Positions 19,223 through 60,415 of a stretch of DNA of 64,000 nucleotides are shown here, one piece after another. The notes beneath the pieces were generated by a model. That model worked only from the letters and a program-made list of their open reading frames with translations, was not told the DNA's origin and did not search any database. This stretch comes from Candidatus Gottesmanbacteria bacterium RIFCSPHIGHO2_02_FULL_39_11. Lineage in GTDB: Bacteria > Patescibacteriota > Microgenomatia > 2-02-FULL-39-11. Position numbers and translations under genes: made by a program. The stretch spans positions 9,522 through 73,521 of the forward strand of contig MFJL01000014.1 of the NCBI GenBank assembly GCA_001779195.1. Direction: 5' to 3'. Positions within the stretch are counted from its first letter, which is position 1. Each line of letters opens with the position of its first letter.

Positions 19223-19250
19223 TGTGATTCTAAACCGTTATTAATTTTTA

Positions 19251-19643: not shown

Positions 19644-19674
19644 ATAATTTCACCATTTACCACCATCTATTTCC

Positions 19675-19703: not shown

Positions 19704-19711
19704 GAGGGGAT

Positions 19712-19732: not shown

Positions 19733-19783
19733 TAAGACAGATGAGTAAAAAACCCTGGAAGCTATGAAGTTGTGAGAGATAAG

Positions 19784-20239: not shown

Positions 20240-20402
20240 AAATATTTTTTATGTCATCCCGGACTTGATCCGAGATCCATCATCGGCTTACTAATTGCCT
20301 ATCATAGATTCCCGCCTTCCCATAAAAACTCTAACGAGTTTTCAGGGTAAACGCGGGAATGACAATATATCCATATTTACATACGCCAGGATAATAATCA
20401 AA

Positions 20403-21827: not shown

Positions 21828-21847
21828 GTTTTTTTACTATAATAGTC

Positions 21848-22405: not shown

Positions 22406-22419
22406 GAGGAAATAAAAAA

Positions 22420-24348: not shown

Positions 24349-24364
24349 ATAATATGTTGAGCTT

Positions 24365-25024: not shown

Positions 25025-25048
25025 TATAAGAATGTTTTTGAGAAATTT

Positions 25049-43372: not shown

Positions 43373-43389
43373 GAATATATTGTATCAAG

Positions 43390-44904
43390 TTATCTCTCTT
43401 CAAACGAATAGTAGCAGTAGTGAGTGTTGTCGTAGTAAGGACTTTTTGAAATATCAGTCTTAAAGTTTCTTTTTAAGAGCATTGCATCTCCCTTTTTATA
43501 TACTACAGAATATCGATTATCTTTTAATATCCAATCGCTTACAAAACGTTTCATTTCTTCATAACTTAACGGAGCATAAGCATTAGGTTGGTCGTGAAAG
43601 TCGAGAATAATATAATCACTATTTAATCCGTATGGTAAGCGATACGCGCTGTTTCTCTCCGTCAGATGAGGAAGAAGATTATTCTGAGCTGCAACTGATA
43701 CACCTGTGGGAACTTGTGATATAACCGCATCGTTATTTCTCATCCACTCTTCCCTCTCATAAAAGTTTCTTTTTAAGAAACTGTGAACGGGAGCTGTGAG
43801 AATAACATCCTGCATAAGAGTTGCCAATATTAAAAAAATTCCGATGAAAATAAAAAATACTTTTTTCTTTTTGTTTGAAATTTTTTTTCCTAACTTTCCC
43901 GAAGCATAAACTGAACTGACAGCAAGAAGCATTGCTCCCGTTGCAGCATTATGATTTATGAGCATCCATTTGGTTATCTGAGGACCTTCGTATAAAAACC
44001 TGAAAGAAAAATCAGCAAGTAATGGAATAAGAATAAAAAGAGGAGAAAAAACGGGAAGTGTAATAAATGTAAAAAAAGAAGTGATTATCGTATGTATTTT
44101 TAAAGGATTCCCTATTAGCCCTTGCAAAACTTTTAGCGGGTCTGTAAATAAAATATGTATTAGTCCCAGAGGACTCGTGGATCCACCCACAGATTTAAAA
44201 TGAGTAAAATGACCATATACACCTTTAATAGAATAAAGAGGCACCAGAACATATACCAAAAGAATAAATACGCAAAATCCTAAAATTCCAGTTACTCCTC
44301 CCCGAATTCTCCATCCTTTTCTGAATAACAGTCCGATTCCAATGGCACTTACCAGTAAGGCCATATCCTCTTTAATGGTAAAAAGTGCAAGAATGCAAAA
44401 CCAGTAAATAAGTCTTTTGTCTTTCTCAATGGCCAAATATAAAAGAGAAATAAAAAAAGGAGCAAAAGTTACCTGATGGAATTCATTTAAAATTGCAAAC
44501 TGAGTACCTATAAAAAAAAGGTATGCAAAAACTATTGCCAGTGACAAAAAAACATGCCGGGTAATTTTTCTAGATAATAAATACAGAGGGAGGGCGGAAA
44601 ACACCATCCAGAAAGACTGAAAAATCAGAATTATCCGAACATTTTCCCAAATGCGATAAAGAGGCGCCAAGAGGTATAAAATAGGCTGAAAATGATCTTC
44701 AAGAAGCCAAATACAGCCGGCTGAACTATATGGGAAAATACCCCGGCTTATTTTCCAGATGGCTTCATCAAAATACCCCAGATCGAGTCCAAATGTCATA
44801 TACCGGTTATGTGTCTGGACTGAAATAAAAGAATAAATAAAAGACATTGTCCCCAAAAAGACAAACAGAATGAAAAACTCACTGATCTGATGTATTCTTT
44901 TCAT
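43390..44904 (-). CDS. Polytopic membrane protein, DUF2079-like (putative GT-C-type glycosyltransferase)
   Basis: 504 aa with about 11 TM segments, an FGLDLGYFDEAIW N-terminal loop and a C-terminal soluble domain. The family call is uncertain. Confidence 0.45.
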   Translation of the reverse strand: MKRIHQISEFFILFVFLGTMSFIYSFISVQTHNRYMTFGLDLGYFDEAIWKISRGIFPYSSAGCIWLLEDHFQPILYLLAPLYRIWENVRIILIFQSFWMVFSALPLYLLSRKITRHVFLSLAIVFAYLFFIGTQFAILNEFHQVTFAPFFISLLYLAIEKDKRLIYWFCILALFTIKEDMALLVSAIGIGLLFRKGWRIRGGVTGILGFCVFILLVYVLVPLYSIKGVYGHFTHFKSVGGSTSPLGLIHILFTDPLKVLQGLIGNPLKIHTIITSFFTFITLPVFSPLFILIPLLADFSFRFLYEGPQITKWMLINHNAATGAMLLAVSSVYASGKLGKKISNKKKKVFFIFIGIFLILATLMQDVILTAPVHSFLKRNFYEREEWMRNNDAVISQVPTGVSVAAQNNLLPHLTERNSAYRLPYGLNSDYIILDFHDQPNAYAPLSYEEMKRFVSDWILKDNRYSVVYKKGDAMLLKRNFKTDISKSPYYDNTHYCYYSFEER

Positions 44905-44922
44905 ACTTGAAGATTATCACAT

Positions 44923-46485
44923 ATGAAATTAACTACCAAAATAATTTTCGGCTTAATTCTGATACTGGGAATATTCTTAAGAACTTGGAACTTTCAAAGT
45001 TTATTTTATTTTGCAATTGATGAAGAAAAAGCAAGCTTTATAATTTCAGATATTGCAAGCGGGTCCCATTTTCCCAGTGTTGGACATCCTTCATCTGTCG
45101 GATTTAGACTGGGCCCCTTACAGTATTATCTTATCGCTCCTTTCTTTAAACTGTTCGGCACAAGCCCGATTGTCTGGGGATATATAGGAATTGGAGTGTC
45201 TGTATCTTCGATAATTCTTATTTTTAAGTTGGGATCGGCAGTAAATAAAAGAGTAGGTCTTCTATCTCAATTTCTCTATGCAGTTTCATATCTTAACACT
45301 CTGTATGACAGACGCGGATGGCAGCTGACTTTCCATTCAAGTATTTCACTTTTCATTATTCTCTTTTTGTACAAATTAAAACAAACTAAAAAAATACGTT
45401 TTTTGTACCTTCTCACGTTACTTTTGATTTGCTCTACTCAGTTTGAAGTGGCTACATTTATTTTTGTCCCTTTTGTGATCATATCATTCTTTATTTTTCG
45501 CATACCGCTCCCCAAAAAACACGTGATGGTTAATATCATTATTTTTATAATCTCTTTTACTCCCCTTTTGTTTTTTGATCTAAGACATAGTTTCCTAAAT
45601 GCCCGCTACTTAGTCAATTATTTTATTCCGGATGCCCAAATCAGAATCGTAAAAAATAAACCTCTTGAAAATGAGCGCTTGGTATATCTTGCACATAATT
45701 TAATTCCGAATACGTTTACGCGGCTTATAAGCCCTGGAAATGAAAAAAATGTTGCACTACAGTATGCTAACTGCCCCCAATACCTGGTGTATAAACAAGA
45801 AAAAATTAATCCTCTCATTCGTTTTTTGGTAATAGGAATATTTATCGGATTTTTTATTTTCATTATTAGACTTAGAAATAAAAACTTAGAAGAATATCTA
45901 ATACCTAAGTCTATCTTTTTGTATTTCTTCCTTTTATTTGCCGCAACTTCTTTGTATACCTATCTCTTTCACGGAGAAATGGCTGAATATTATATGCAAA
46001 GCGGGTTTGCGTACTTTTTTATAATTACTTCTTATGTTTTAGTAAGAATACTTACGTCACGTTTTAAAATAGTTGCTATCTTATTTTTAGCTTACTTTCT
46101 TTTTTCAAATTCTTCTTCCATTTTTCAAAGTTTTAACCCGTACGGATATACAGATAAACTGAATGCTGAAAAATGGATTATCTCTCAAATCGGGAGCGCA
46201 TCGTTTACTTTAAGCTCTGTCCAAACCTGCTGGTATTCAGGAGGATACCGGTATCTTTTCACCTATCTGGGCAAGGAACCCGCATCAAGCTATATGGATC
46301 AGTATCTTGAAGAATATTATAAACCGCAACAAAAAGAGATACCGAAGTATAAAGTAATTCTTTTAACCCCCGAATTAATAGGTAACAATCCAGATGGATA
46401 TGAAGAATTCAAAAAAAATACTGAAAGAAATTCCGTTTCGTTTAGAAAATTTGGAGCTATTGAAGTATATATTGAGAAGATTTAA
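44923..46485 (+). CDS. GT-C-like membrane glycosyltransferase, paralog A (same family as 47287-48732 and 55547-57109)
   Basis: 520 aa. The N-terminal loop FAIDEEKASFIISDIASGSHFPSVG...LGPLQYYL and the C-terminal SGGYRYLFTYLGKEPASSYMDQY are both shared with 55547-57109. Confidence 0.55.
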   Translation: MKLTTKIIFGLILILGIFLRTWNFQSLFYFAIDEEKASFIISDIASGSHFPSVGHPSSVGFRLGPLQYYLIAPFFKLFGTSPIVWGYIGIGVSVSSIILIFKLGSAVNKRVGLLSQFLYAVSYLNTLYDRRGWQLTFHSSISLFIILFLYKLKQTKKIRFLYLLTLLLICSTQFEVATFIFVPFVIISFFIFRIPLPKKHVMVNIIIFIISFTPLLFFDLRHSFLNARYLVNYFIPDAQIRIVKNKPLENERLVYLAHNLIPNTFTRLISPGNEKNVALQYANCPQYLVYKQEKINPLIRFLVIGIFIGFFIFIIRLRNKNLEEYLIPKSIFLYFFLLFAATSLYTYLFHGEMAEYYMQSGFAYFFIITSYVLVRILTSRFKIVAILFLAYFLFSNSSSIFQSFNPYGYTDKLNAEKWIISQIGSASFTLSSVQTCWYSGGYRYLFTYLGKEPASSYMDQYLEEYYKPQQKEIPKYKVILLTPELIGNNPDGYEEFKKNTERNSVSFRKFGAIEVYIEKI

Positions 46486-47183
46486 TTTTTAACTGCAACT
46501 ACAAAAAATTGTTTTCCCAATAGTTTTTGCAGAACAGGTAATTTCAAATAAAATCTTAAAAGAGGCGGCCAGAGAGGAAGCCATTTAACTTTGGTACTAT
46601 ACGGCAAAAAGGGATACCGATAGTCGCCTATTTTATACCCAATTGTGGTTAAGGCTTCAGTAAGACTTAAAAAAGTAATCGGCACCTTATGATCAAAAAA
46701 ATCCCAATAAGCATTTCCCACAAGTCCTATATCCGGCTGCATAATAAGCAAACGTCCGCCGCTTCTTAATGCCTTAAATGCCTCAGACAAGAGTCGAAAA
46801 ACATCTTCTTTACTGTCTAAATGTTCCAAAAGATTACTCATGAAAAAAACATCAACAGATTTTTCCTTAAACTTGGAATGGAGCTCCTTTACAGGCGCAA
46901 TGATTGCTTTCACATTTGAGAAAGCAACTTTTCTAACATCTGTATTAATATCCAATGCAATTTTTTCTTTTGCGTCAATGTTATTGATAAACTCACATAG
47001 ACCTGCCCCCACGTCTACGACACGATCCGAATTTTTTATATAATTCTGTAAAAATTCTCTGCATAAAATCTTCCATAGTTCACTTTTTCTTATTCTTTCA
47101 TATGAGGTGAATCTGCTGTCGTATAATTTTTTTATATCCAGGGACATATTTGGGAGTTTAACTGAAAAACTGATAATATACAA
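46482..47183 (-). CDS. Class I SAM-dependent methyltransferase
   Basis: 233 aa with VVDVGAGLCEF and LLIMQPD. Confidence 0.7.
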   Translation of the reverse strand: MYIISFSVKLPNMSLDIKKLYDSRFTSYERIRKSELWKILCREFLQNYIKNSDRVVDVGAGLCEFINNIDAKEKIALDINTDVRKVAFSNVKAIIAPVKELHSKFKEKSVDVFFMSNLLEHLDSKEDVFRLLSEAFKALRSGGRLLIMQPDIGLVGNAYWDFFDHKVPITFLSLTEALTTIGYKIGDYRYPFLPYSTKVKWLPLWPPLLRFYLKLPVLQKLLGKQFFVVAVKN

Positions 47184-47286
47184 TTGTTTCAGTAGTTTTA
47201 AAATATTAATTAATAGTTTACAACACCTAAATGGTTATCGGAGAAGTTTCGGAAAAGAGTAAGATTATATATATTTACTGTAAAAA

Positions 47287-48732
47287 ATGAACAGAAATAA
47301 AATTTTACTATTATTAATTCTTCTTATTGCTTTATTTTTCAGATTTTATAATAGTCAGAACAGATACGGAATTGGTTACGATGGAAGTCGCGATGCATTA
47401 GTTGCGTTTGAGTCAGCAAGACAGCTGCAGTTACCTCTTACCGGGTCCTTTTCTTCAATCGGACCGATTACGTTTGGACCACTCTACTACTGGTATATTA
47501 CTCTCTCTACTCTTCTTCCAACCGTATGGGGACCATGGGTAGCAATAAACGTTGCAAGTTTTCTGATGGTATTTATCATGTATAAAACCGGCAAATTATT
47601 AATTAACGAATCATTTGGAATTATACTGGCTTGTGTTACAGCGCTATCTCCGGCTCAGATTATATCAGGAACTCAGCTTCAGCAACACGCATTAATTGGA
47701 TTTCTTTCATCCGTTGTTATCTATTTCTTTGTCAAACATTATTATCAAAGATTTAGTACATTTGAATATATACTCTGGGGATTTTGCTTGGGAAGTGCTA
47801 TTAATTCTCACTATCAAGCAGTTTCTCTTCTGACTCTTCCCTTGCTTGCTGTTATTTTTTTTAAAAGGAAAAAATTTATCTTTACCTTTATATTAGGCCT
47901 TTTTATAAGTTTTATTCCTTTTTTAATTTTTGAGCTTACAAATCATTGGTTTAATACACGAAATATCCTTGACTATATTTTAATCGGGCAATATAGAGTC
48001 TGGACAAGCAATAGATGGATTATTTTTTTGGGAAATTTTATTCCACAGTTTTGGTCTTATGTTACTGGAATACCTATATTTTTATCTTCAATTGCATTTT
48101 TTTCTTCAGTTCCTATTATTCTTTATTTGTATATTAAAAAAGTACTTTCTAAACCTTTTTTCGTAATCTTATTAAGCTTTTTGGCACTGCTAACAAGTTT
48201 AAGATATTACCGAGGAGAAAAATTTTTTGGATATCTACAATTTTTTCACCCCTATATTTTTATTTTTACCTCTTTAGTTTTATATCTCCTTGTCCGAAAG
48301 TTCAAAATGAGCGTTTTACCTACTCTTATAATAATTGGTTATATCATTTTAGTTGTTCCATCTTCTTTTTCCTCTGTATCTTCAGATTCATTTAATCAAA
48401 TTACAAAGCGCAGGGTAGAACTGCTTTCTTCGCATTATCCTAATCAAGTTTTTACACCATATGAATGTAAAGGAGCTTACAATGCAAAAAATGATATCCA
48501 GGGACTTACTCTCATGCTGTTTATGAATAAAAAATTCAGTAATAACGGAAGAAAAATAGCTCTTTATAATAAAGAGTGTGATTTTTTTGGAGGAAAAAGA
48601 TTAGATCTTAACCTGATAGACTTAACTGATAGTTCAGCCTCAGGAAGACTAGCCGAAGGAGAATTATATCCCATGACCCCATACACGGTATGGGATGAAA
48701 CTGCCAGATGGTACTTTAGAGAAGAACCATAA
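47287..48732 (+). CDS. GT-C-like membrane glycosyltransferase, paralog B
   Basis: 481 aa and polytopic. It has YGIGYDGSRDALVAFE...LPLTGSFSSIGPITFGPLYYW, which is similar to the first loops of 44923 and 55547. Confidence 0.5.
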   Translation: MNRNKILLLLILLIALFFRFYNSQNRYGIGYDGSRDALVAFESARQLQLPLTGSFSSIGPITFGPLYYWYITLSTLLPTVWGPWVAINVASFLMVFIMYKTGKLLINESFGIILACVTALSPAQIISGTQLQQHALIGFLSSVVIYFFVKHYYQRFSTFEYILWGFCLGSAINSHYQAVSLLTLPLLAVIFFKRKKFIFTFILGLFISFIPFLIFELTNHWFNTRNILDYILIGQYRVWTSNRWIIFLGNFIPQFWSYVTGIPIFLSSIAFFSSVPIILYLYIKKVLSKPFFVILLSFLALLTSLRYYRGEKFFGYLQFFHPYIFIFTSLVLYLLVRKFKMSVLPTLIIIGYIILVVPSSFSSVSSDSFNQITKRRVELLSSHYPNQVFTPYECKGAYNAKNDIQGLTLMLFMNKKFSNNGRKIALYNKECDFFGGKRLDLNLIDLTDSSASGRLAEGELYPMTPYTVWDETARWYFREEP

Positions 48733-48794
48733 CATCTTAACCGAATGGCCAAAGATGTTTGATCAACATAAAACCTGTTACAAAATTAAACCCA

Positions 48795-49502
48795 TTAATT
48801 AAAAAATCTATAATAAAATATTGCTTTTATTGCTTCTATAGCATCCATTGCAGTAAGCTTTTTTCCCGATAAATGATTCCTTCCTTTATAGGTTATAGGA
48901 ACTTCAATAATCTTCACCTTGTTTTTGATAAGTTTTCCAGTTATTTCCGGCTCTAAGTCAAAGTGATTTGACCGAATGGGATGTTTTCGAAAGATTTCAA
49001 TCGGAACTACCTTATACCCGGTTTCCATATCAGTTAAAGAAACATCATATAGAAAAGCTGTAAAAAGAGTCAGAAATTTATTTCCGACATAGTAAAAAAA
49101 GGGAATCGATACATCTTTATGCGCAAATCGGGATCCGTATACGGCAATCTTTTTATTCTTCAAATTTTTAAAAGGAGATATTAATGCCGGGATTTCTAAG
49201 GGATTATATTCAAGGTCTGCATCCTGAATGAGAACATAATCCCCCGTTGCTTTATCAACTCCGCTTCTTATCGCGGCGCCTTTACCTTTATTAATAGTAT
49301 GAGTAACGACGGTAATTTTTGTTTTTGCTTTTTTAAGTTTATTTTTTTGTCCGATTATTTTTTCTGACGTTCCATCTGTTGACGCGTCATCAACTATAAT
49401 TATTTCTTTCTTACAGGGCAGTTTTAACAGGGAAAGTTTTTCTATAACCTCAGAAACAGTTCTCACTTCATTATACACAGGAACGATTATGGAAAGCTTC
49501 AT
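48795..49502 (-). CDS. Polyprenyl-phosphate sugar synthase (GT2, DPM1/ArnC/GtrB-like)
   Basis: 235 aa with MKLSIIVPVYNE, IIIVDDASTDGT and QDADLEY. Confidence 0.75.
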   Translation of the reverse strand: MKLSIIVPVYNEVRTVSEVIEKLSLLKLPCKKEIIIVDDASTDGTSEKIIGQKNKLKKAKTKITVVTHTINKGKGAAIRSGVDKATGDYVLIQDADLEYNPLEIPALISPFKNLKNKKIAVYGSRFAHKDVSIPFFYYVGNKFLTLFTAFLYDVSLTDMETGYKVVPIEIFRKHPIRSNHFDLEPEITGKLIKNKVKIIEVPITYKGRNHLSGKKLTAMDAIEAIKAIFYYRFFN

Positions 49503-49528
49503 AATACTTCTTTATACACGAACAGACC

Positions 49529-50929
49529 TCATTTGAGCAAGATAGGTGAATATAATGTACTCCCGCTCGATTCTTTCTGATATACGACAGTAAGTCCGGA
49601 ATTATTAAAATATTCCCGAAATGCTTTCTCGTCAAACAAAGCAACCTGTATTTCCTTATCGTCTTTATTTATTACTACTTTATTTGAAGATTGAATTATA
49701 TCTCTTTTTTTATCCGCTTCTCCTATCCAATATTTGGCAATGTCAGCGCGTCTTTTGATCCAGTGATTATCCTGATCGAATTTAACGGTAATAATTGATG
49801 CGTAGACCCAAATTAAAATTGCAAAAAGACAAATAATCTGATATTTCAGGGATTTGAGTGAAATTTTTATTACCGGATAAAATATCAGAATAAGAAACGG
49901 CAGGAGAGAAATACTTCCATGGTGAGGGGCAATATGAGACGGAATGATAACAATGGGCGAAAGAGATATAAGGAGCCAGAACAGAAGAAATAGAATGGTT
50001 ACATAATCTCTTTTATGAATCATGTGTTTTTTAAATAAAATAAATAAAGGAAAAAGGGCAACCGCAAAGACAGACACTGTATTTAACATCCATACAGCGG
50101 TCTCTGTGTGGAATGTATTCACAAATTCGGGCCGGATCATCCAGTATTTTAAAAAGTTATCCTTAACTGCCTCGGGCCAGTTCAAAAAATAAAGAAGAAA
50201 AAAACGGTAAGAAGAAATAATACTTTGATTCAAAGAGACGGGGTAGCTTGCCAAATCGGATCTGAAAACGGATCTAAGCATGCCGTATCCCAACATAATA
50301 ATTCCCAGGGAAACAAATAATCTTTTTCCGAGCTTTAGACTGTTTTTCCCTTTGGTTAAGAGTTCAAAAATAAACAGTACGAAAGGCAATAAAAAAGTAA
50401 ATTCATTTGTCAGCAAAGCTAATAGGAAAATAAAACACAGGCTGAATGTTCTGACTGATGAAGGCTTAAAATAAATAAAAATATAAAAACAAAGAAAAAA
50501 CAAAAATGCTCCGATACTATATGAGCTGTTGGCAAGCCATGAAAGGGTATTATAATGAACCGCACTTGTTCCGTACCATAGCAATATTATTAGTCCTCCC
50601 CTGGAAGATTTAAGAATCTTTTTAGATATTTTATAGACCAGAAAAATAGAAAAAATAAAAAACGGCCACAGAAAAAGGTGAAAGGCCGGAGCATTCCACC
50701 CGAAAATACTTCTCCCTAACCAAAAAAATGTTTCAGATCCCAAAGGCCGATAAAACTGAACATCCGGCCGGGGTATAAAAAAATGAAAAAAATCAGATAC
50801 TTTTATTACATGGGATATTTCTAAAATAAAAAAATCATCCTGGGAAAAGTAAACGGATAAAAGAGGAGAAAAAAGTAAAAAAGACTGGACGATTATTAAA
50901 ACAAACAGTAATTTTTTCTTCACAAGCAT
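49529..50929 (-). CDS. Polytopic membrane protein, putative GT-C glycosyltransferase (QDDF-motif family), tandem paralog 2
   Basis: 466 aa. The N-terminus LLSVYFSQDDFFILE parallels the adjacent gene's PSFSTYFHQDDFTHM. Confidence 0.45.
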   Translation of the reverse strand: MLVKKKLLFVLIIVQSFLLFSPLLSVYFSQDDFFILEISHVIKVSDFFHFFIPRPDVQFYRPLGSETFFWLGRSIFGWNAPAFHLFLWPFFIFSIFLVYKISKKILKSSRGGLIILLWYGTSAVHYNTLSWLANSSYSIGAFLFFLCFYIFIYFKPSSVRTFSLCFIFLLALLTNEFTFLLPFVLFIFELLTKGKNSLKLGKRLFVSLGIIMLGYGMLRSVFRSDLASYPVSLNQSIISSYRFFLLYFLNWPEAVKDNFLKYWMIRPEFVNTFHTETAVWMLNTVSVFAVALFPLFILFKKHMIHKRDYVTILFLLFWLLISLSPIVIIPSHIAPHHGSISLLPFLILIFYPVIKISLKSLKYQIICLFAILIWVYASIITVKFDQDNHWIKRRADIAKYWIGEADKKRDIIQSSNKVVINKDDKEIQVALFDEKAFREYFNNSGLTVVYQKESSGSTLYSPILLK

Positions 50930-50934
50930 GTTAT

Positions 50935-52383
50935 TCAGTATCCTAGAAATTTTGAGGAGTCAAATTCCAATACTAACTTTGACTTTTTAACATCCGGAGG
51001 CAAATCTTTTACATCTTCAAAATAACTTTGAATTTTATTGTCGTTATATAGAATATTTATAGCTGCTCCGTTTCCCAAAGCCTGATAAATTTGTTTTGCC
51101 GAACCATATTGAGGAATTTTTATTTCTCCGTTTTTGAAATAAATTATTGAGTCATCAGGCAGTATTGGATATTTTAATCTAAGTGCAAAAAGTGTTTTTT
51201 CAGCCTGCCGCGCGCTTAGTATAACCCAGTGGGTACGCCTTGCAAGAAGAATTGAATTACTCGCATGTACCAGATAAAACACAATCATCAAAAAAGAAAT
51301 TATCTTGAATAGTCCTTTTTCTTTAAATGCAGATGAAAGAACAGATCCTAAATAAATGGATAAGCCTGCCAATGCTAAAGCCTGCTCTGTTGCAAGTTTA
51401 TGAAGAGGAAAAATAATAAGAGGTAAAAGGGCAATTACAAACCAGAATAACGAATAAAAAAGAGTATATATGCTTCCTTTCACATATTTAATTGACCAAA
51501 TCATGAGAAAAAATAAAAGAACTGCAAATACTCCGAAAAAAATAAAGAATACCGAAGAATTTGCTCCTGCTACCTGATGCCAGACCGGACTGATTTTTAA
51601 ATGGGGAAGCAAAAAATCTATAAAAATGTTTGGTACGGAAAGCGCCCATAAAAAATACCAAAAAAGAATTTGAAAAGTTGCTTTTCCGATAATGACTTTA
51701 TAAGAAGATGATGAAGCAAAACCGTAAAATATGGCATGCGCCAGAAAATATATTACACTTAAGAGAATAAAGATTCCTAGTTTCTTAAACTCTGATTTTG
51801 ACGGAATTTTTTTCTTCTCGTAGATATAGGTAAGAATTAAAATTCCGGGAAGCACTACTGCAGTTTCTTTCGACATAAGGGCCAGAATAAAAAATAGAAT
51901 ACTTCTTCCTGTTTTATTGGTTGCCAATGAGTATACGGATAAAAGACCAAAAAAGACCAAAAAAAGCTCATGACAATAAGCAGGTGAAAAAAGAGGAGCA
52001 ATATGAGTACTGTTTACTGCATAAAATAAAGATGAAAAAATTCCTGCTTGTGAGCTTTTAGTCAGATACGTACTTAACCGATATAAAATAAGAATATTTA
52101 ATATAAAAAGAATAAAATTGACTGCATGATAGGGAAACGGATTTAATCCGAAAAAGTGTTTTAAAAAATAAAAATATACCTGTGTAGGAATGGGGCGGTA
52201 AAAAGGAAAATCGCCCTTCGCAAACAAATTAAAAGAAGAAATCACTTTTGAAAAAGTGTCGCTGTATGTCATGTGAGTAAAATCATCCTGGTGGAAATAG
52301 GTACTAAAAGATGGAAAGAAAAGAAAAAAAGAAAGAAGAATAATAACGGAAAGAGGGGCTATAATTCTTAAGGAGACTTTCAT
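50935..52383 (-). CDS. Polytopic membrane protein, putative GT-C glycosyltransferase (QDDF-motif family), tandem paralog 1
   Basis: 482 aa with more than 10 TM segments and YFHQDDF in the first extracytoplasmic loop. Confidence 0.45.
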   Translation of the reverse strand: MKVSLRIIAPLSVIILLSFFLFFPSFSTYFHQDDFTHMTYSDTFSKVISSFNLFAKGDFPFYRPIPTQVYFYFLKHFFGLNPFPYHAVNFILFILNILILYRLSTYLTKSSQAGIFSSLFYAVNSTHIAPLFSPAYCHELFLVFFGLLSVYSLATNKTGRSILFFILALMSKETAVVLPGILILTYIYEKKKIPSKSEFKKLGIFILLSVIYFLAHAIFYGFASSSSYKVIIGKATFQILFWYFLWALSVPNIFIDFLLPHLKISPVWHQVAGANSSVFFIFFGVFAVLLFFLMIWSIKYVKGSIYTLFYSLFWFVIALLPLIIFPLHKLATEQALALAGLSIYLGSVLSSAFKEKGLFKIISFLMIVFYLVHASNSILLARRTHWVILSARQAEKTLFALRLKYPILPDDSIIYFKNGEIKIPQYGSAKQIYQALGNGAAINILYNDNKIQSYFEDVKDLPPDVKKSKLVLEFDSSKFLGY

Positions 52384-53417
52384 ACCTTCTCTATTATTTT
52401 TTTATATTCCGAGGAAATGGTATCCCAGCTGAATTTTTCAGCCTGCCTGCGCGGTTTATTTTCCCAATCATTTTTCAGAGCTTTTATTAAGACGTCGGAA
52501 TATTTAACCGGATCTTCTACATCCGTATATAATCCCGCATTCCTTACAATCTCTCTTCGGCTTTGATCATCGGGGGCTACAACCGGAATATTGGATGCCA
52601 GAGCTTCCAAATAAACCAGACCAAATGCTTCCGATTCTTTGGAAGGGAGGGAAAATACCTGCGCGGTTTTATAATAACGGGTGATATCATTATGGCTTAC
52701 TTTTTTTATGATCTTAAACCTTCCCGGAATTTTTGACTGTGCTTGGTTGTATAAATTTTCATATAAGGGGCCGTCTCCTATCAGAAGCAGTGAGGTGTTG
52801 ACAATACCTGAGACCGCATCAATCAAAAGGCCGATACGTTTATAAGGTAGGAGAGCACTTACGCAAAGAATAACCGGAAGTCGTAATCCTGTATCAATTG
52901 GCTTAAGCGAAGGGTTAAACTGACTTAAGTCTACACCGTTTGGAATATAGACTGTCTTTTGAAATGGAAATTTTTCTTTTACCCATGATAAAGCTTTTTG
53001 CGATAAAGCGACAAATATATCCGGTTTTCCAAACTGTATGTTTATCTTATCATCACGGCCAATTCCGGCGTGCCCGCAAATTAGTATTTTAGAATGAGTA
53101 ACAAATCTGACTACTCTGCAAACAATAACTTGTGATCCTCCGTTTATTGGAACAATCCAATCATATTTATTTTTTAATAGATACGAGAAACATCTCAAAC
53201 TAAAAAGTAAAAGAAAAAAATCGTAAAGAAGTGATTGATTCTTTATATAAGGTATACCTGTAATCTGGTTTACTGTATATTTTTTATCTGTTTTTTTTCC
53301 TATTTGAAAAACATCAACATCATAAGAACCTGAAAATCTTCCTGCTATTTCATCTACAAAAACTTCGGATCCTCTTTCAACTATCCCGTTGTATATATTG
53401 AGAAAAGCAATTTTCAT
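52380..53417 (-). CDS. Glycosyltransferase family 4 (GT-B)
   Basis: 345 aa with SEAFGLVYLEALASNIPVVAPD. Confidence 0.75.
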   Translation of the reverse strand: MKIAFLNIYNGIVERGSEVFVDEIAGRFSGSYDVDVFQIGKKTDKKYTVNQITGIPYIKNQSLLYDFFLLLFSLRCFSYLLKNKYDWIVPINGGSQVIVCRVVRFVTHSKILICGHAGIGRDDKINIQFGKPDIFVALSQKALSWVKEKFPFQKTVYIPNGVDLSQFNPSLKPIDTGLRLPVILCVSALLPYKRIGLLIDAVSGIVNTSLLLIGDGPLYENLYNQAQSKIPGRFKIIKKVSHNDITRYYKTAQVFSLPSKESEAFGLVYLEALASNIPVVAPDDQSRREIVRNAGLYTDVEDPVKYSDVLIKALKNDWENKPRRQAEKFSWDTISSEYKKIIEKV

Positions 53418-53430
53418 ATGTAATTTTTAT

Positions 53431-54252
53431 TCAAAAAATCATTCTCTTTACCATTTTAACTGGCGTTAGGATTGCAGATTCAATAGTGTATACGGTTGAA
53501 CGCTTAGTATGAACATCAGAGACAAACGTGGGATGTTTTTGATTAAAAATATCAGGAATTTTAACAGTATCAGGAAACGATCTGCCCCATTCAATTTTAT
53601 ATTTATTTCTGTGAAATGTCGTTTGAATATTTGCACCGCTTGATGACCTTTTCAGGTACATCGCATGCCACAATTTACCCGTCGTAAAATAAAACAAATG
53701 CGGTGAATGATGGATAATTTCCCTGCCTGATTTATCATAATACCCCTCATAGGGATAGCTCCCTGAAACTCTGATACCGTTTATATTTTTCTTATTAATA
53801 AGCCTTACTACGATGTGCCCTTTTTTTCCAAAAAGATGATAAGGACCAACGTCTGGATTTTGAAAATGGTATATGTCTCCCAGTAAATCATATCTTCCTA
53901 CAACAATCCCTTCCAGAGTCTCTCCTTTTGTTGTTATTACATTTTTAATTTCTTCACATAAGAAACTAGGGTAGATTTCATCCCCGTCCACTACCCAAAA
54001 CCAATCAGTTGTTGTCTTATCTACCTGCTCTTCTCGTATGCGTGCTATATCTATAACATCACGGACTTCCCTTTCATAAAATTCTATTTTTTTTGAGTTA
54101 AAAGATTTAATAATTTTTATCGTATTATCTGTTGAACCGGTATCTGCAATAAAGATTCTGTCAGCATAGGGAAGAACAGATGATATGGAATACCAAATAA
54201 AACGGTCTTCATTTTTAACCATCATGTGGACGGTTAACTGATTATTTTTCAT
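53431..54252 (-). CDS. Glycosyltransferase family 2-like (GT-A)
   Basis: 273 aa with MMVKNEDRFI and ADTGSTDNT. Confidence 0.6.
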   Translation of the reverse strand: MKNNQLTVHMMVKNEDRFIWYSISSVLPYADRIFIADTGSTDNTIKIIKSFNSKKIEFYEREVRDVIDIARIREEQVDKTTTDWFWVVDGDEIYPSFLCEEIKNVITTKGETLEGIVVGRYDLLGDIYHFQNPDVGPYHLFGKKGHIVVRLINKKNINGIRVSGSYPYEGYYDKSGREIIHHSPHLFYFTTGKLWHAMYLKRSSSGANIQTTFHRNKYKIEWGRSFPDTVKIPDIFNQKHPTFVSDVHTKRSTVYTIESAILTPVKMVKRMIF

Positions 54253-55537
54253 GATGATGGCGACGTAAAGAATAAATGCTCAAATAAGAAGTTAAAAATA
54301 CGGTAGCTGCAAACGCAAGTATTAAGGATAGAGCCGGACCCATCCTTCCGTATCTGGGTATAAAAATAAGGTTTCCGACAATCACAATTATCAGTTGCAA
54401 CACACTGTTTATGGTGAGTATTTGAGGTTTTTTGACGTAATATATCGCAACCGCAACAGCGGGAATGGATGCCGTGAAAAAAATCTGGCTTACTAAGAGA
54501 AGTTGAAAAACTCCTACGGAATCCTTTGCTTTTTCTCCGAAAAGAATTGTAATAAAAGGATTCGCAATAACTATTAATACTAAAATGGTTACTATAAGAC
54601 CAAGAGTTGCTAAAATTATTTTTAATAAATAATCTTTAAATTCGTTTTTAGTAGCAATTCCCGATATCCGGGGAGCAATAACTGAAGTAAAGCTTCCGGC
54701 AAGAAGAGGATATATAGAAATCACCCGGGAGGCTGTAGCATATATTCCAGTTTCAACTGAGTTTGTAAATGCAATAAGCATCAGAGTATCGAGCCTGCTT
54801 GAAACTGCCGTCAGGGATCTGGCTATACCTAAAAATTTTGAAAATTTTAGGAGCTCCCCAAAATCCTTTGAACTGGGAGATGATTTTAAAAATCTGGTTC
54901 CGATAAATGCCAATGCTACAAAGGCGGTAAGTATCATACTGGCAATTTGTGTCCATATAACGGAAGTTAAGTTGACAAAAGACAAAAGAATAATAAGAAT
55001 CAAAAAAATAAGTCTTAGGATACTACTCAGTGCCGAAAGGACTGACGCTCCAACAAATCTTTCTTCAGCTGAAAGAATATACGAGAAAAAATTTAAGATC
55101 GTAAGTCCAAATATCCCCACCGTGATAACCCGAACAAGCGGAGTAAGAGAAGGATTATGAAAAAAATTACCTGCTAAAAAATTAGACAGAATTAAAATTA
55201 AAAAACATAATACTAAAACAATTCCTGACTGATACAAAAATGAAGTTTTTATAAACGTATTGAAACGATCACGGTTATTTTTAAGGGAAGGTAGAAAGCG
55301 AGCAAGAGAAGCCCCGATTCCTACATCAGAAACATCGCAAACCAGTATAAAGAGTGAAAAAATAGCAGAATAATATCCAAAATCCGATAGTGAGATAACC
55401 CGGTACAACACAACAGTGAAAATAAAAGCAAAAACCGCCGAAATCATATTTCCCATAAAAACCAGATAAGTATTACGGGCTGTTTTTGAAAGCAATAATT
55501 TGCGGATCAAACTGCTTGTTTTTTGATACATATTCAT
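54242..55537 (-). CDS. wzx: MOP-superfamily polysaccharide flippase (Wzx-like)
   Basis: 431 aa with 12-14 TM segments and Wzx-like spacing and size. Confidence 0.65.
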   Translation of the reverse strand: MNMYQKTSSLIRKLLLSKTARNTYLVFMGNMISAVFAFIFTVVLYRVISLSDFGYYSAIFSLFILVCDVSDVGIGASLARFLPSLKNNRDRFNTFIKTSFLYQSGIVLVLCFLILILSNFLAGNFFHNPSLTPLVRVITVGIFGLTILNFFSYILSAEERFVGASVLSALSSILRLIFLILIILLSFVNLTSVIWTQIASMILTAFVALAFIGTRFLKSSPSSKDFGELLKFSKFLGIARSLTAVSSRLDTLMLIAFTNSVETGIYATASRVISIYPLLAGSFTSVIAPRISGIATKNEFKDYLLKIILATLGLIVTILVLIVIANPFITILFGEKAKDSVGVFQLLLVSQIFFTASIPAVAVAIYYVKKPQILTINSVLQLIIVIVGNLIFIPRYGRMGPALSLILAFAATVFLTSYLSIYSLRRHHHEK

Positions 55538-55546
55538 AATTTGCCT

Positions 55547-57109
55547 TTATGGAGTTTTAGGAGAAAGAATATAGACATATATTGAATTAAATTTCCTTTG
55601 GTTAACCACGTCGTAGTCTGCAAGGTATTTCAACTTTTCCTCTTCCCATCCGCTGATTTCAGAAAAAGTGCTTCTGGGATCAATTAGAGAAAGCAGGACA
55701 AGAGAAGGGTCATTCGCACTGCTTTCTTTTTGAGAGTAAAGCCATGAAAAATAGGAGTCCATATAAGAGGACTGAGGAGTTTTATGATAATAGTCGAATA
55801 AATATCTGTACCCGCCGAATTTTTCACATCCTCCGATTGCCTGCAGGATATACGGCTTGTTTCCGACATTTTCTTTTACATAATGAATCATTTGTATTTT
55901 TTCCCGATATTGAAACGTTTTCTGCGCCGTAAAAAGAGTGCCTAAATTTAAACCGACAAAAGATATGAGTATAGATGTACTTATGATAAGACCGTGATGC
56001 TTACGATCAATGTATGAAAGTGCTAAGGCAAACGCAATTGAGAACCAGGGAAATAAATATAAATAATAATATTCAAAAACAGTTCGGTTATAGAATAGCA
56101 GGACTCCCAAAGTGGCGACAAAAACAGAAGAAATAACTTGAAAACTGAATTTCTGCCTGTGGTGGCGGATAGCAATTAAGAAAAAACATGCCAGAAGAAG
56201 AAATCCGGATAAGACTGCCTCAATATTTGGAGATTTGACAAAACGTATCAATTCCTTACATTGTCCGGATTCAACGGATAAATCAGGAAAAAAGGGAACC
56301 CAGACAATTCTTCCGATAAGAGAAATAAACTCCGAAAACCGCTCTCCCAGAGCCGGGATATTCAGAGATCCGCTTGCTCTGAGAATAAAATTTGCCAATG
56401 CGGATAAGTTCTGATAATTATGCCGGGTGTCAAAAAGGACTACCGGGACAAAACTCAGAATCAAAACAAGCAAGCTTATTTTTAATTCTCCCCTATCTAT
56501 GTGTCTGCGGTTGCCAATGACGAAATATAAAATAACCGGAAGAAAAACGAGGATGGAAAGATGGCACTGAAGTGCGACTGCAAAAACAAAACTTAGATGA
56601 ATTAAAGAATGCTTTTTTTGTTTTAAAAAGCGATAAAGAAAAAAACCAATAAGAAGAGACAAAAGCGGAATCGGCGTCGGATTCCAATACTGTCTTTCAT
56701 AGAATGAAATTAAAAAAGATGACGCGTAAAAAACGCCAGCGAAAACCGCAACTTTATTTGAGAACATTTTTCTGGATATTAGAATTACGGCAAGCGTCGT
56801 CCCTACGCCCCAGAGCGAGGCTAACACGGACCAGCCGATCGGATCTCCCCCGAAAAATACATACGTTAAGGCGGTGAGATAGCTGAAGAGGGGACCCAGA
56901 TATAAGCCGGTATCTGAAGCATTAACCCCTATTAGGGGAAAATGAAGACCGGTTGCTATATTCCCCGCTATAAAAGCCTGGTATTCCTGATCCATGCCAA
57001 ACGAAGTCCATTTTTCGAGATTATAAAACCTGAAAAAAGCAGAAAGAGCTAAAACACAGAAGCATAATAAAATGAAGATACGGTTTTTCTTATCATTTAA
57101 TTTTTGCAT
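55547..57109 (-). CDS. GT-C-like membrane glycosyltransferase, paralog C
   Basis: 520 aa. FGMDQEYQAFIAGNIATGLHFPLIG...LGPLFSYL and the C-terminal GGYRYLFDYYHKTPQSSYMDSY are both shared with 44923-46485. Confidence 0.55.
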   Translation of the reverse strand: MQKLNDKKNRIFILLCFCVLALSAFFRFYNLEKWTSFGMDQEYQAFIAGNIATGLHFPLIGVNASDTGLYLGPLFSYLTALTYVFFGGDPIGWSVLASLWGVGTTLAVILISRKMFSNKVAVFAGVFYASSFLISFYERQYWNPTPIPLLSLLIGFFLYRFLKQKKHSLIHLSFVFAVALQCHLSILVFLPVILYFVIGNRRHIDRGELKISLLVLILSFVPVVLFDTRHNYQNLSALANFILRASGSLNIPALGERFSEFISLIGRIVWVPFFPDLSVESGQCKELIRFVKSPNIEAVLSGFLLLACFFLIAIRHHRQKFSFQVISSVFVATLGVLLFYNRTVFEYYYLYLFPWFSIAFALALSYIDRKHHGLIISTSILISFVGLNLGTLFTAQKTFQYREKIQMIHYVKENVGNKPYILQAIGGCEKFGGYRYLFDYYHKTPQSSYMDSYFSWLYSQKESSANDPSLVLLSLIDPRSTFSEISGWEEEKLKYLADYDVVNQRKFNSIYVYILSPKTP

Positions 57110-57212
57110 ATCTATTTAGCTTTTGTTTTATATATTTTTTGATATAGTCTGCTAGATTGCATTAGCTTAAATACTATATTATAACGTCTTGACCAAGTTC
57201 AAAAGTATTATT

Positions 57213-58828: not shown

Positions 58829-60415
58829 TTACCTGATAATAGACTCATGATTCTTTTTATCCGATTTGAACCTAATAATCAAATAAATAAGAAGCATCAT
58901 GCATAAAACATACATGGTGAGATAAAAAATAAGAAAATAACCTTTGGTAAACCACGGTTTATACTGACTGGCTTCCACTAAAAAACGGCTTACCGGAAGA
59001 ATATCATAATAGGAAGAAAGAAGAGTATATAATCCGTAAATGCTGAAAATAACCGTTAGTACGGCAATCAATTTTATAAACCCTTCTTTCACCTTTTTAA
59101 ATTTTTCGGGAATCAAAGAGTTCCATCCCTTAAGAAATAAATAGGTAAGAATCGTAACCACGGGAAAATAATACCTTCCCTGTATTCCCAATTGAAACCC
59201 AGACTGATACCAGCTTAACCAGTCGAAAACAGAAATTCCGGCATAAAATATCCATGCGATCCCGATTAAAAAAATTATGCTTTGTATGTGCCTGTTTACT
59301 TGCGACCGGTTCCTTATAAGCTTAAATAAAGATAGTCCCAGTCCCACAATTGCAAGTATAAGTATGCGGTTAATTATCCGGTGAATACCTCTGGGATAGG
59401 TTACACCCAGCCATTTGTATATTCCGAAATACCATGGCAATACTTCCGTATAAGTATGAGAGAGAGTATATTCCCGGGTATATTTTAAAAGGCTTTGCAA
59501 ATTTAAATGGTTAATTATCGTTTGAATTAAAACAAACGAGCCAAAACCTATTCTATAGAAAATATATAAAAGAACGACACCAAATACCCCAAACAAACTG
59601 ATATATAACCATTTTTTTTCTGTCTTTAAATCTCTTATTGCAATAGCCAAAATCAAAATGACGGTTATCGGAATAGTTATAATAAATTGAGGTTTTGAAT
59701 AGATGCATAATAAAAGAGTGATAAATAAATTTGCCGTGTTTCCGACTGTAAAAGAATTTTTTATGATATGGACGATCCAATATATAAATATCGTAAACAG
59801 AAGATTACCCAAGGCGTCACTGTTTACTCCCACATTGGCAAAAATAAGCATAGGTTGAAATCCTACCAGTATGGGAAATATGAATTGCTCCAAATGTCTT
59901 TTTGGAAATAATAACCTTCCAAGTTTATAGCTTACTGCAATAAACATCATAAAAAGTAAAAGAGACCATATACGTACTGTAAGAACCCGAGTAAAAATAT
60001 CGGAAGTATAAAACAAACGGTATATTAAACTTCCCGGAATATAATATAAAATCGGATATCGGGATGCTTCAATGCGGACAAAGGTTGATTTATCTTTATG
60101 GGTGTTTACAGCAGAAATACTTGCCTCATGATAACCAATCAGGCTATCGGAATAAGGAATACGGTATTCCGGATGAAAAGTAAAACGGTTATTGCCGGAA
60201 TTGTCCCGGTGCGTTCCTAAGAGTACTTCTGAAGTGTATATTTCTTTTGACAAATCTAACTCTTCGCCCTCTGAGTTTCTTCCTTTTTCTGCCACAAATG
60301 CCACTTGGCCAAAGTGAGACTGTTCATCGGGAGTATGAAATATAGGAACAAGACACACCCAAATAAATGCATTTAAGAAAGCCGTAAAAAAAAATATGGT
60401 ACCAGCATTTCTCAT
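58829..60415 (-). CDS. Polytopic membrane protein, DUF2142-like (putative GT-C glycosyltransferase)
   Basis: PIFHTPDEQSHF first loop and more than 10 TM segments. The start is adjusted to MRNAGTIFFF (ATG 60413-60415), which gives an ATGA overlap with the upstream GT2; the track ORF runs to 60514. Confidence 0.45.
   Translation of the reverse strand: MRNAGTIFFFTAFLNAFIWVCLVPIFHTPDEQSHFGQVAFVAEKGRNSEGEELDLSKEIYTSEVLLGTHRDNSGNNRFTFHPEYRIPYSDSLIGYHEASISAVNTHKDKSTFVRIEASRYPILYYIPGSLIYRLFYTSDIFTRVLTVRIWSLLLFMMFIAVSYKLGRLLFPKRHLEQFIFPILVGFQPMLIFANVGVNSDALGNLLFTIFIYWIVHIIKNSFTVGNTANLFITLLLCIYSKPQFIITIPITVILILAIAIRDLKTEKKWLYISLFGVFGVVLLYIFYRIGFGSFVLIQTIINHLNLQSLLKYTREYTLSHTYTEVLPWYFGIYKWLGVTYPRGIHRIINRILILAIVGLGLSLFKLIRNRSQVNRHIQSIIFLIGIAWIFYAGISVFDWLSWYQSGFQLGIQGRYYFPVVTILTYLFLKGWNSLIPEKFKKVKEGFIKLIAVLTVIFSIYGLYTLLSSYYDILPVSRFLVEASQYKPWFTKGYFLIFYLTMYVLCMMLLIYLIIRFKSDKKNHESIIR

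Follow-up and report, generated by a model that had tools for sequence, protein, structure and literature searches.

The window analyzed here, a stretch of 64,000 nucleotides from Candidatus Gottesmanbacteria bacterium RIFCSPHIGHO2_02_FULL_39_11 (contig MFJL01000014.1, positions 9,522 to 73,521), contains five genes, labeled A to E, whose products are polytopic membrane proteins. As judged from their sequences, the five are intact genes for divergent glycosyltransferases (GTs) of the GT-C fold that belong to the PMT_2 family, which also holds ArnT, PMT and TMTC. The best explanation as a whole, to which we assign a probability of about three in four, is that the proteins form two branches of PMT_2 GT-Cs (A/B/C and D/E) that would add sugars on the outer face of the membrane, their genes being part of a glycan locus. 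A first-pass annotation of the window had named five open reading frames (ORFs), and all were found exactly as listed there. Window coordinates are used throughout, and the core/accessory pattern was established from nine loci.

A, 44923..46485, plus strand: GT-C of 520 residues, PMT_2-type, with about 11 transmembrane (TM) helices and a C-terminal alpha/beta domain of about 110 residues; core gene.
B, 55547..57109, minus strand: GT-C (PMT_2) of 520 residues, the full-length paralog of A; core gene.
C, 47287..48732, plus strand: GT-C (PMT_2-type) of 481 residues; accessory gene.
D, 49529..50929, minus strand: TMTC-like GT-C of 466 residues without TPR; accessory gene.
E, 50935..52383, minus strand: TMTC-like GT-C of 482 residues without TPR; accessory gene.

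Pairwise comparisons were carried out with BLASTP using composition-based statistics, and single sequences were compared with family profiles in hhalign. The pairwise similarities were well above chance. A and B were 27% identical over 519 columns, i.e. their full length (E = 1e-46), and D and E were 24% identical over 434 columns, also full length (E = 8e-20). The identity of A and C was 26% and was confined to the N-terminal 260 residues (E = 2e-10); B and C were matched with E = 2e-6. In hhalign, C matched the A/B profile with 99.1% probability over residues 2-355, which constitute the membrane domain, D matched the E-family profile with 100% probability, and the product of a further gene of the locus, F, matched the A profile with 78%. 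The controls Wzx, FtsW and MraY, unrelated polytopic proteins from the same window, scored below 1%; hydrophobic composition alone therefore does not explain the matches of A-E, and a similarity of the low-complexity kind only was not seen, the loop motifs being conserved. The A/B and D/E profiles matched one another in a profile-profile comparison (96% probability, E = 1.5e-9). The two groups are thus branches of one PMT_2 family, and the separation of D/E from A/B/C made in the first-pass annotation was not borne out. The family of three paralogs proposed there was found to extend over the full length of A and B and over the membrane domain of C; the C-terminal GGYRYLF...SSYMD block that had been ascribed to all three is common to A and B and does not occur in C.

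Among single sequences, B matched PMT_2 (Pfam PF13231, gathering cut-off 26.1 bits) at 6.4e-11 and 43.2 bits. No PMT_2 match at E<=1 was found for A, C, D or E, and because single-sequence searches were empty for these four, family profiles, orthologs and predicted structures were used instead. PMT_2 matches at E<=0.01 were present in 11 of 20 A-family members and 11 of 24 E-family members, and PF13231 was carried by many C-family members. The PMT domain PF02366 was matched by none of A-E. The bacterial Pmt equivalog model NF058602 (cut-off 800 bits) gave 39.8 bits with B and no match with the others; the "family 39" names given by NCBI to orthologs probably derive from PMT_2-type domain matches, not from this model.

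AlphaFold2 models were built on family alignments for A and E only, and B, C and D are tied to them by homology. The predicted local distance difference test score and predicted TM-score were 88.8 and 0.89, respectively, for A and 89.3 and 0.91 for E. When the A model was compared to the Protein Data Bank (PDB) using Foldseek, 19 matches were obtained at E<=1e-3, all of them GT-C enzymes, with TM-scores of 0.46-0.54. AglB (7e-7), PglB, STT3, ArnT (7e-6), ALG12 and Pmt4 were among the matches to A, with AftA and Emb at 1e-3 to 1e-1. For the E model, STT3 (2e-4), AglB (8e-4) and ArnT (8e-4, TM-score 0.50) were followed by DPY19 and EmbA. The significant matches of both models were thus GT-C enzymes exclusively. 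Together with the PMT_2 matches of B and of about half of the homologs sampled for the A and E families, and with the homology of C and D, these fold matches agree with the earlier description of the proteins as GT-C-like.

The motifs of the A/B/C branch are located as follows:

A, 45019..45027, plus strand: acidic first-loop motif D33-E34-E35, confirmed by translation.
A, 46240..46299, plus strand: C-terminal block GGYRYLFTYLGKEPASSYMD, in a predicted extracytoplasmic domain.
B, 56984-56992, minus strand: motif D40-Q41-E42.
B, 55757-55816, minus strand: GGYRYLF...SSYMD block.
C, 47380-47397, plus strand: first-loop motif D32-G-S-R35-D36-A37.

All of the strings reported earlier for A (FAIDEEKASFI, GSHFP, LGPLQYYL and GGYRYLF...SSYMD) and for B (FGMDQEYQAFI, GLHFP, LGPLFSYL and GGYRYLF...SSYMD) were found. 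In the model, the first helix that follows TM1 begins with the motif of A, and in a 20-sequence alignment of the A family, D33 and E35 were invariant and E34 was conserved in at least 90%. Invariant residues of the A-family C-terminal block were G440, G441, R443, Y444, L445, Y457 and D459. In the C family, position 32 was always D or E, R35 was invariant and D36 was present in at least 90% ([DE]xxR[DE][AV]); the C-terminal domain of C differs from that of A/B and is conserved within C's own family. As signatures of the branch, A has D-E-E-K-A, B has D-Q-E and C has [DE]xxR[DE]A.

A broad profile comprising A/B/C and distant homologs had a sole PDB match at E<=0.01, ArnT (5ezm, E = 0.007). D-q-e-r-d-a-l-I of the profile was aligned with D-E-G-R-Y-A-E-I of ArnT, and fylGPlyyY (the family's LGPLxYY) with ArnT YFEKPPFHMW. 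The acidic first-loop motif to which the first-pass annotation had drawn attention is located directly after TM1, where the first extracytoplasmic loop begins, and is aligned with the D-E of ArnT PDEGRYA. ArnT D55/E56, Pmt1 D77/E78 and the DD of TMTC align at the active site, the GT-Cs compared keep at least the first Asp, and the first-loop acidic position is a catalytic or metal site across GT-C enzymes (PMC7801869). The two first-loop motifs of ArnT, RYA and YFEKP, are conserved and functionally required (PMC5377068). RYA is absent in A (DEEKAS) and B (DQEYQA), and in DGSRDA of C the Arg is kept and the Tyr is replaced by Asp; the position of YFEKP reads LGPL or FGPW in A/B/C, with no Lys. 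Judged on these alignments, A, B and C carry an ArnT-like first-loop signature.

In the D/E branch, the opening motif reported for the tandem pair was present as VYFSQDDF in D and TYFHQDDF in E, and the following positions were assigned:

D, 50834-50839, minus strand: DD.
D, 50744-50752, minus strand: YRP.
D, 50399-50410, minus strand: TNEF (N-E for K-E).
D, 49931-49942, minus strand: PSHI (for PLHK).
E, 52282-52287, minus strand: DD.
E, 52192-52200, minus strand: YRP.
E, 51862-51870, minus strand: KET.
E, 51397-51408, minus strand: PLHK.

Conservation was counted over 151 family representatives and is given in E numbering: D33 95%, D34 97%; [YFW]62, R63 and P64 97%; E173 99%, H328 95%; K172 75% (His 12%, Asn 5%); and Lys or Arg at K329 86%. 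The DD pair immediately follows TM1 in the E model; DD and YRP are in loop 1, KET precedes TM6 and H-K precedes TM10. By motif, the only level at which TMTC was compared, E reads DD, F-Y-R-P and K-E-T-A-V-V, and D reads DD, F-Y-R-P and N-E-F; DD, YRP and KET are the TMTC motifs M1, M2 (partly) and M4 (PMC7801869). At the C-terminus of the E model, there is an alpha/beta domain of about 70 residues where TMTC has TPR. Neither D nor E had a TPR or DUF1736 match in Pfam at E<=1, and no acceptor-binding domain of the MIR or TPR type was found with Pfam in any of A-E. Because distant homologs (P0128, P0131 and P0133) have the same motifs together with C-terminal TPR repeats, D and E look like a TPR-less branch of a bacterial TMTC-like group. 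When 1.84 billion representatives, clustered at 50% identity, were searched with the D/E-family profile, 987 clusters scored E<=1e-30, and 30,825 were retrieved at E<=1e-10.

D represents a minority type in the D/E family, marked by N-E for K-E and by the absence of the Lys after the conserved His. An ortholog in one related locus, L009 (39% identical), has the same substitutions, which argues for a conserved subtype and not for decay. The members observed were D itself, L009 15355-16707 and 3862-5166, and L089 452-1867; in these, the K of K-E-T is N, the K after the conserved His is I, S or H, and the other motifs are kept. A third, more distant D-like gene is located elsewhere in L009.

The genes around A-E, which are needed for the comparison of loci, are these:

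33460..36603, minus strand: fusion of Wzy_C (O-antigen ligase/polymerase-type) and PMT_2, 1047 residues, about 23 TM helices (Pfam Wzy_C 3.8e-15, PMT_2 5e-5).
41127..42530, minus strand: F, PMT_2/Agl23-like GT-C of 467 residues (PMT_2 2.5e-4, TIGR03663 2.7e-9).
42527-43372: GT2, overlapping F by 4 bp.
43390..44904, minus strand: G, DUF2079 polytopic membrane protein (Pfam DUF2079 9e-54).
46482..47183, minus strand: S-adenosylmethionine-dependent methyltransferase MT2, cassette neighbor of A (Pfam Methyltransf_11 4e-9).
48795..49502, minus strand: soluble GT2 of 235 residues, DPMS/AglJ/PpgS/ArnC-like (PDB and NCBIfam matches).
52380-53417, minus strand: GT4 (Pfam Glycos_transf_1), core gene between E and B.
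53431-54252, minus strand: GT2 (Pfam Glycos_transf_2), core gene between E and B.
54242-55537, minus strand: Wzx-type flippase (Pfam Polysacc_synt, MOP superfamily), core gene between E and B.
58829..60514, minus strand: H, candidate GT-C of 561 residues with about 11 TM helices and TPDEQSH after TM1.

B, Wzx, GT2, GT4, E, D and the 235-residue GT2 form one tight minus-strand run, in which the ends of genes overlap or are 5-27 bp apart. The window proteins were mapped onto eight related loci. The core order is the Wzy_C-PMT_2 fusion, GT2, acetyltransferase, two GT4, F, GT2, (G) and A, continued by the DPMS-like GT2, GT4, GT2, Wzx, B and H. The loci differed in the stretch that separates A from the GT4 (MT, methyltransferase; GT2(dpms), the DPMS-like GT2; C', a second C-type gene):

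Window: MT - C - GT2(dpms) - D - E.
L007: GT2(dpms) only.
L015: MT - GT2(dpms).
L008: MT - GT2(dpms) - C.
L013: MT - GT2(dpms) - C - C' - E.
L014: MT - GT2(dpms) - E.
L009: two unrelated genes - GT2(dpms) - D - E.
L089: GT4 - D - GT2(dpms), without E.

A and B were found in every related locus that covers their position. Orthologs of A were 44-75% identical, some being titled "glycosyltransferase family 39 protein", and those of B, located downstream of Wzx in L007, L008, L014 and L015, were 40-44% identical. Among the compared loci, C occurred only in the window, L008 and L013, and it is duplicated in the last of these, where two tandem C-type genes (4361-7193) are 45-46% identical to C. The wider C family has full-length homologs of 30-55% identity, many with PMT_2 matches and GT39 names, in Gottesmanbacteria, Levybacteria, other Microgenomates and Parcubacteria. 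MT2 was present in six of the eight related loci; in L009 (11693-14673), a 486-residue gene product and a 507-residue membrane protein with a weak Sulfatase match replace MT2 and C. The DPMS-like GT2 was present in all of the loci, always flanking the C/D/E cassette. Orthologs of F were present in six related loci and G in five, G being absent from L008 and L015. A and B are thus core genes, whereas the accessory genes C, D and E have come and gone next to the DPMS-like GT2.

The phylogeny across related genomes was examined with a neighbor-joining tree of 31 sequences and 477 columns (300 bootstraps; supports refer to bipartitions). Each paralog formed a clade with its own orthologs (A 90%, B 99.7%, C 100%, D 99.7%, E 100%, F 100%), and the groupings D+E and A+B+C received 100% and 93%, respectively. 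Because the paralogs group with orthologs from other genomes, the duplications predate the divergence of these genomes and are old; a recent duplication was rejected, since the paralogs are 24-27% identical and each groups with orthologs elsewhere that are 39-55% identical. Of the lineage-specific expansion put forward in the first-pass annotation, the paralogy stands, and the notion of a recent or genome-specific event does not, each paralog having its own orthologs, in the corresponding place of the locus in other Gottesmanbacteria, with clade support of 90-100%.

A pattern-seeded scan of species-representative genomes for the A family, which is biased to close relatives, returned 241 relatives, with true A orthologs in about six species. 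The informative titles were those of Patescibacteria (Gottesman-, Davies-, Roizman-, Woese-, Shapirobacteria and others) with two kinds of exceptions: one "Bacteroidota" record (L014) and many "uncultured Gammaproteobacteria" titles (binchicken metagenome-assembled genomes). L011 (GCA_964544585), L013, L014 and many others are syntenic with, and 45-55% identical to, the Gottesmanbacteria locus, and the "Gammaproteobacteria" and "Bacteroidota" titles of such syntenic records are almost certainly placeholders or wrong taxonomy. Identical copies of A were found on nine groundwater metagenome contigs, Rifle samples among them, and a deposited sequence identical to E carries the title of a hypothetical protein from Candidatus Gottesmanbacteria RIFCSPHIGHO2_02_FULL.

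In this groundwater organism of the candidate phyla radiation (CPR), A-E belong to a cell-surface glycan locus of about 40 kb that is conserved across related loci and also comprises the phosphoglycosyl transferase and ManC genes listed below. Past 31 kb, the window is occupied up to its end by a dense glycan locus. This also encodes further GT2 and GT4 enzymes, an acetyltransferase and two methyltransferases. Beyond A-E, it contains at least three further GT-C-type genes and candidate H, so that up to nine GT-C-type genes are present (the five, the fusion, F, G and H). The remaining genes that bear on the argument are listed below:

0.4-19.6 kb of the window: dcw/peptidoglycan cluster.
24365-25024, minus strand: initiating phosphoglycosyl transferase (Bac_transf 5e-61; WbaP/EPS sugar transferase models).
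25049-26131, minus strand: GDP-mannose pyrophosphorylase ManC (TIGR01479 GMP_PMI 1.3e-66).
28446-31050, minus strand: argG and argH (argininosuccinate synthase and lyase), between the phosphoglycosyl transferase/ManC/GT4 block and the main glycan locus, on the same strand.
57189-58806: SIS (GmhA-like) isomerase and NDP-sugar 4,6-dehydratase-like gene (dehydratase/epimerase).
61395-63298, minus strand: adjacent GT10-type (Glyco_transf_10, 2e-8) and GT11-type (Glyco_transf_11, 2.7e-35) genes.

The 235-residue GT2 (48795-49502) is proposed to be the maker of a lipid-phosphate-sugar donor. Its best PDB match was Pyrococcus DPMS (5mlz, 2e-15, whole catalytic domain), followed by ArnC and GtrB, and its best NCBIfam matches were AglJ (2e-30), PpgS and a Dol-P hexose transferase; DPMS, ArnC, GtrB, AglJ, PpgS and Dol-P hexose transferases are makers of polyprenyl-phosphate sugars. 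A polyprenyl-phosphate sugar would then be the donor for A-E, and the location of this gene beside C, D and E is a context consistent with the donors envisaged in the first-pass annotation. The only flippase-type protein in the window is the Wzx/MOP protein, which could serve either role, the flipping of lipid-phosphate sugar or of oligosaccharide.

Donor type, sugar identity, acceptor and order of steps we infer as follows. The phosphoglycosyl transferase and cytoplasmic GT2 and GT4 enzymes would build a lipid-linked oligosaccharide, which Wzx would flip to the outer face of the membrane and which the Wzy_C-type domain would polymerize or ligate to an acceptor. In parallel, the soluble DPMS/AglJ-like GT2 would load a monosaccharide onto polyprenyl phosphate. 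The sugar would be a hexose, plausibly mannose in view of the nearby ManC gene. The outer-face GT-C enzymes would pass the sugar from polyprenyl phosphate to an acceptor, which may be the glycan, a protein or the wall, with the conserved first-loop Asp as the catalytic or metal-binding residue. Each GT-C would have its own acceptor or linkage, and the different linkage specificities suggested earlier for the paralogs are plausible. A and B would perform core steps, and C, D and E would add strain-variable decorations, like serotype-converting Gtr/three-component systems. The C-terminal module of a GT136 enzyme binds carbohydrate (PMC11127046), and by analogy the differing C-terminal domains may bind acceptors.

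Several results weigh against this explanation. Searched individually, A, C, D and E matched no sequence model in Pfam, NCBIfam or the PDB. The Foldseek TM-scores are moderate (0.4-0.55) and do not separate ArnT/PMT from oligosaccharyltransferase (OST) and ALG enzymes. The 48795-49502 GT2 is well below every equivalog cut-off in NCBIfam, and no GtrA/GtcA-type flippase was found with Pfam among window ORFs of at least 120 residues. Finally, neither of the basic residues K172 and K329, retained by 75-86% of the family, is present in D, whose donor may differ or whose activity may be lower.

Of the alternatives, the one that fares best, though we regard it as rather unlikely, is that some or all of the five are protein O-glycosyltransferases (PMT/TMTC-like). 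In place of a polysaccharide or lipid-linked glycan, the Ser/Thr residues of pilin, S-layer or secreted proteins would then receive the sugar from polyprenyl phosphate. Among named families, the protein O-mannosyltransferases are indeed the closest (PMT_2, and NF058602 for B), and NCBI titles orthologs as family 39 proteins. However, the score of B against NF058602 is far from the 800-bit cut-off, PF02366 is unmatched and MIR/TPR domains are absent in all five, and PMT_2 includes lipid and glycan modifiers such as ArnT. The TMTC motif set of D/E (PMC7801869) and the presence of ManC in the region would also fit protein acceptors, and streptococcal GtrB plus GT-C systems are reported to glycosylate membrane proteins (PMC12041528); yet the genes considered here lie within a Wzx/Wzy_C/phosphoglycosyl transferase operon of the polysaccharide type and vary like side-chain cassettes.

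It is distinctly less probable that A and B are en bloc OSTs or ligases that use a flipped polyprenyl-diphosphate-oligosaccharide in the manner of PglB/AglB. AglB, PglB and STT3 top the Foldseek list of A, but ArnT, ALG12 and Pmt4 score about as well. A and B do have a C-terminal extracytoplasmic domain, as OSTs do, but their GGYRYLF block is without a WWDYG-type Asp motif. They are also core genes next to Wzx; against this, a Wzy_C-type ligase/polymerase domain is already present at the locus. This alternative was down-weighted because the sequence family is PMT_2, with ArnT as the sole PDB sequence match, and because a WWDYG-like motif is lacking.

A third and still weaker proposal concerns D, which could be a non-catalytic or regulatory partner that functions only as a heterodimer with E, like Pmt1-Pmt2 or EmbA-EmbB. 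D and E are adjacent here (5 bp apart) and in L009, and the two conserved Lys residues are missing from D as well as from its orthologs. An obligate heterodimer was nevertheless rejected in view of the occurrence of D without E in L089 (order GT4, D, DPMS-like GT2) and of E without D in L013 and L014. Moreover, DD, YRP, E and H are all retained in D, which groups with its orthologs in a separate clade (99.7%), as would be expected of an enzyme that functions on its own. That the resemblance is an artefact of hydrophobic, low-complexity composition among unrelated transporters or membrane proteins is scarcely credible: A, C, D and E are without a direct Pfam or PDB sequence match, but composition-corrected BLAST reached 1e-46, the Wzx/FtsW/MraY negative controls exclude it, the loop motifs, polar and charged, do not vary among 20-150 homologs, and transporter folds appeared in Foldseek only at probability <=0.2.

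Among the other GT-C-type genes of the locus, the fusion protein has Wzy_C at residues 228-444 and PMT_2 at residues 623-793, and its orthologs in L008, L009, L012 and L015 are 55-63% identical; the joining of an en bloc transferase/polymerase domain to a lipid-phosphate-sugar transferase domain is an unusual architecture. F has WLDE after TM1. G, which is divergent from A, was counted as GT-C-type on our assumption about the Pfam clan of DUF2079. H had no Pfam, NCBIfam or PDB match and was not linked in hhalign to the profile of A or of E; its membership in either family was therefore not supported, and it may represent an unassigned GT-C family. Orthologs of H, 37-42% identical, are located next to or near B in L007, L008, L015 and L016, adjoining B in L007 and L015 and lying one gene further in L008. 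The listed ORF of H overlaps the upstream GT2 by 103 bp and its orthologs align from about residue 26-50, so that the true start of H is probably later. The longest ORF of G starts 18 bp from the divergent start of A (44904-44923). In metagenome gene calls, G starts later (469 residues vs. 504), which leaves a divergent intergenic region of about 120 bp that probably holds the promoters of A and of a G-F operon.

Three further observations pertain to the window at large. Judging by the GT10/GT11 fucosyltransferase-like pair with which the glycan locus ends, the surface glycan of this CPR bacterium may be fucosylated. The G+C content is 33-35% at 42000-56000, which is rich in GT-C genes, vs. 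38-41% at 10000-26000 (dcw and phosphoglycosyl transferase-ManC); variable surface-glycan loci are typically lower in G+C. In the dcw cluster, a MurF-like Mur ligase (5198-6805, minus strand; TIGR01143 7.6e-64) is aligned only from about residue 173, and the usual N-terminal domain is replaced, over the first 170 or so residues, by a stretch with four predicted hydrophobic segments, which suggests a membrane-anchored MurF.

The GT-C/PMT_2 family is already known, orthologs are publicly labeled as family 39 glycosyltransferases, and no new kind of enzyme or mechanism is revealed here. New are the division of the proteins into two branches, each with an explicit motif set, the likeness of D/E to TMTC, the recognition of D as a conserved N-E subtype, the C-terminal domain private to A/B, and the core/cassette layout of a CPR glycan locus with up to nine GT-C-type genes. 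CPR/Patescibacteria are uncultured organisms with small genomes, and to our knowledge their surface chemistry is essentially unknown; a literature search returned no description of GT-C/GT39 enzymes, their expansions or their gene clusters in these bacteria. The Gottesmanbacterium devotes about 40 kb to a surface glycan, with unusually many predicted lipid-donor (GT-C) transferases, and two PMT_2 subfamilies with testable motifs and a core/variable split provide a rationale for strain-level surface diversity.

A more far-reaching joint reading is advanced tentatively, as a possibility that we would not favor in its entirety: the locus would be a CPR assembly line for an outer glycan, resembling that of the lumen of the endoplasmic reticulum (ER), with a core and a swappable cassette, with D/E as a sister group of TMTC, and with the GGYRYLF...SSYMD domain of A/B as a new acceptor-binding module. 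If this were true, up to nine GT-Cs would be fed by lipid-phosphate-sugar donors in a small-genome bacterium, the conserved core being A, B, F and the Wzy_C-PMT_2 fusion and the swappable cassette being C, D and E beside the donor synthase. Such a cassette would confer strain-level surface variation relevant to host attachment or phage evasion, and the D/E family, with about 1000 clusters (50% identity), would be an uncharacterized, TPR-less bacterial sister of the animal TMTC O-mannosyltransferases.

Among known systems, ArnT (GT83; C. metallidurans structures 5ezm/5f15) shares the GT-C fold with the A and E models, and the C family retains the Arg of its RYA motif as [DE]xxR[DE]A (PMC5377068). 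It differs in that sequence identity to it is only about 10-15%, in having 13 TM helices as compared to the 11 predicted here, and in its C-terminal domain; moreover, the present genes come from a CPR bacterium, and the window showed no genes for lipid A. TMTC1-4 (GT105) and bacterial TPR-bearing relatives are like the D/E family in the DD after TM1, the YRP later in loop 1, the K-E-T in the loop before TM6, and the Pro-rich TM9 and basic residue before TM10 (M6 and M7; PMC7801869). TMTC and OSTs have a phosphate-binding Arg before TM10, where the D/E family has H-K. Unlike TMTC, D and E are without a TPR domain or DUF1736 match, the H-K of SHKSYRP is absent from them, ERxxY is replaced by PLHK...EQ, and D has N-E for K-E.

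In function, the nearest analogs would be three-component or Gtr-type side-chain glycosylation and the multi-GT-C pathways of mycobacteria and the ER lumen. The three-component systems (GtrA/GtrB/Gtr, CsbB/GtcA/YfhO and Citrobacter GT136) resemble the present locus in that a synthase-like GT2 adjoins the GT-Cs, in that the GT-Cs vary by strain as cassettes on a conserved glycan locus, and in the C-terminal extracytoplasmic domains of the GT-Cs, which in GT136 include a carbohydrate-binding module (PMC11127046). They differ in their GtrA/GtcA-type flippase, of which none was found in the window, in the number of GT-Cs (here up to five of the A-E families, and nine GT-C-like, on apparently one or two synthases), and in family, the GT-Cs here being PMT_2 branches and not Gtr, YfhO or GT136. 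In the mycobacterial lipomannan/lipoarabinomannan/arabinogalactan pathways and the ER-lumen ALG3/9/12/6/8/10 pathway, the GT-C subfamilies are different, and the likeness is one of pathway logic only. ALG12, ALG9, AftA and Emb are among the fold matches of A, and in those pathways, as perhaps here, many GT-C paralogs act serially on the non-cytoplasmic face with polyprenyl-phosphate-monosaccharide donors.

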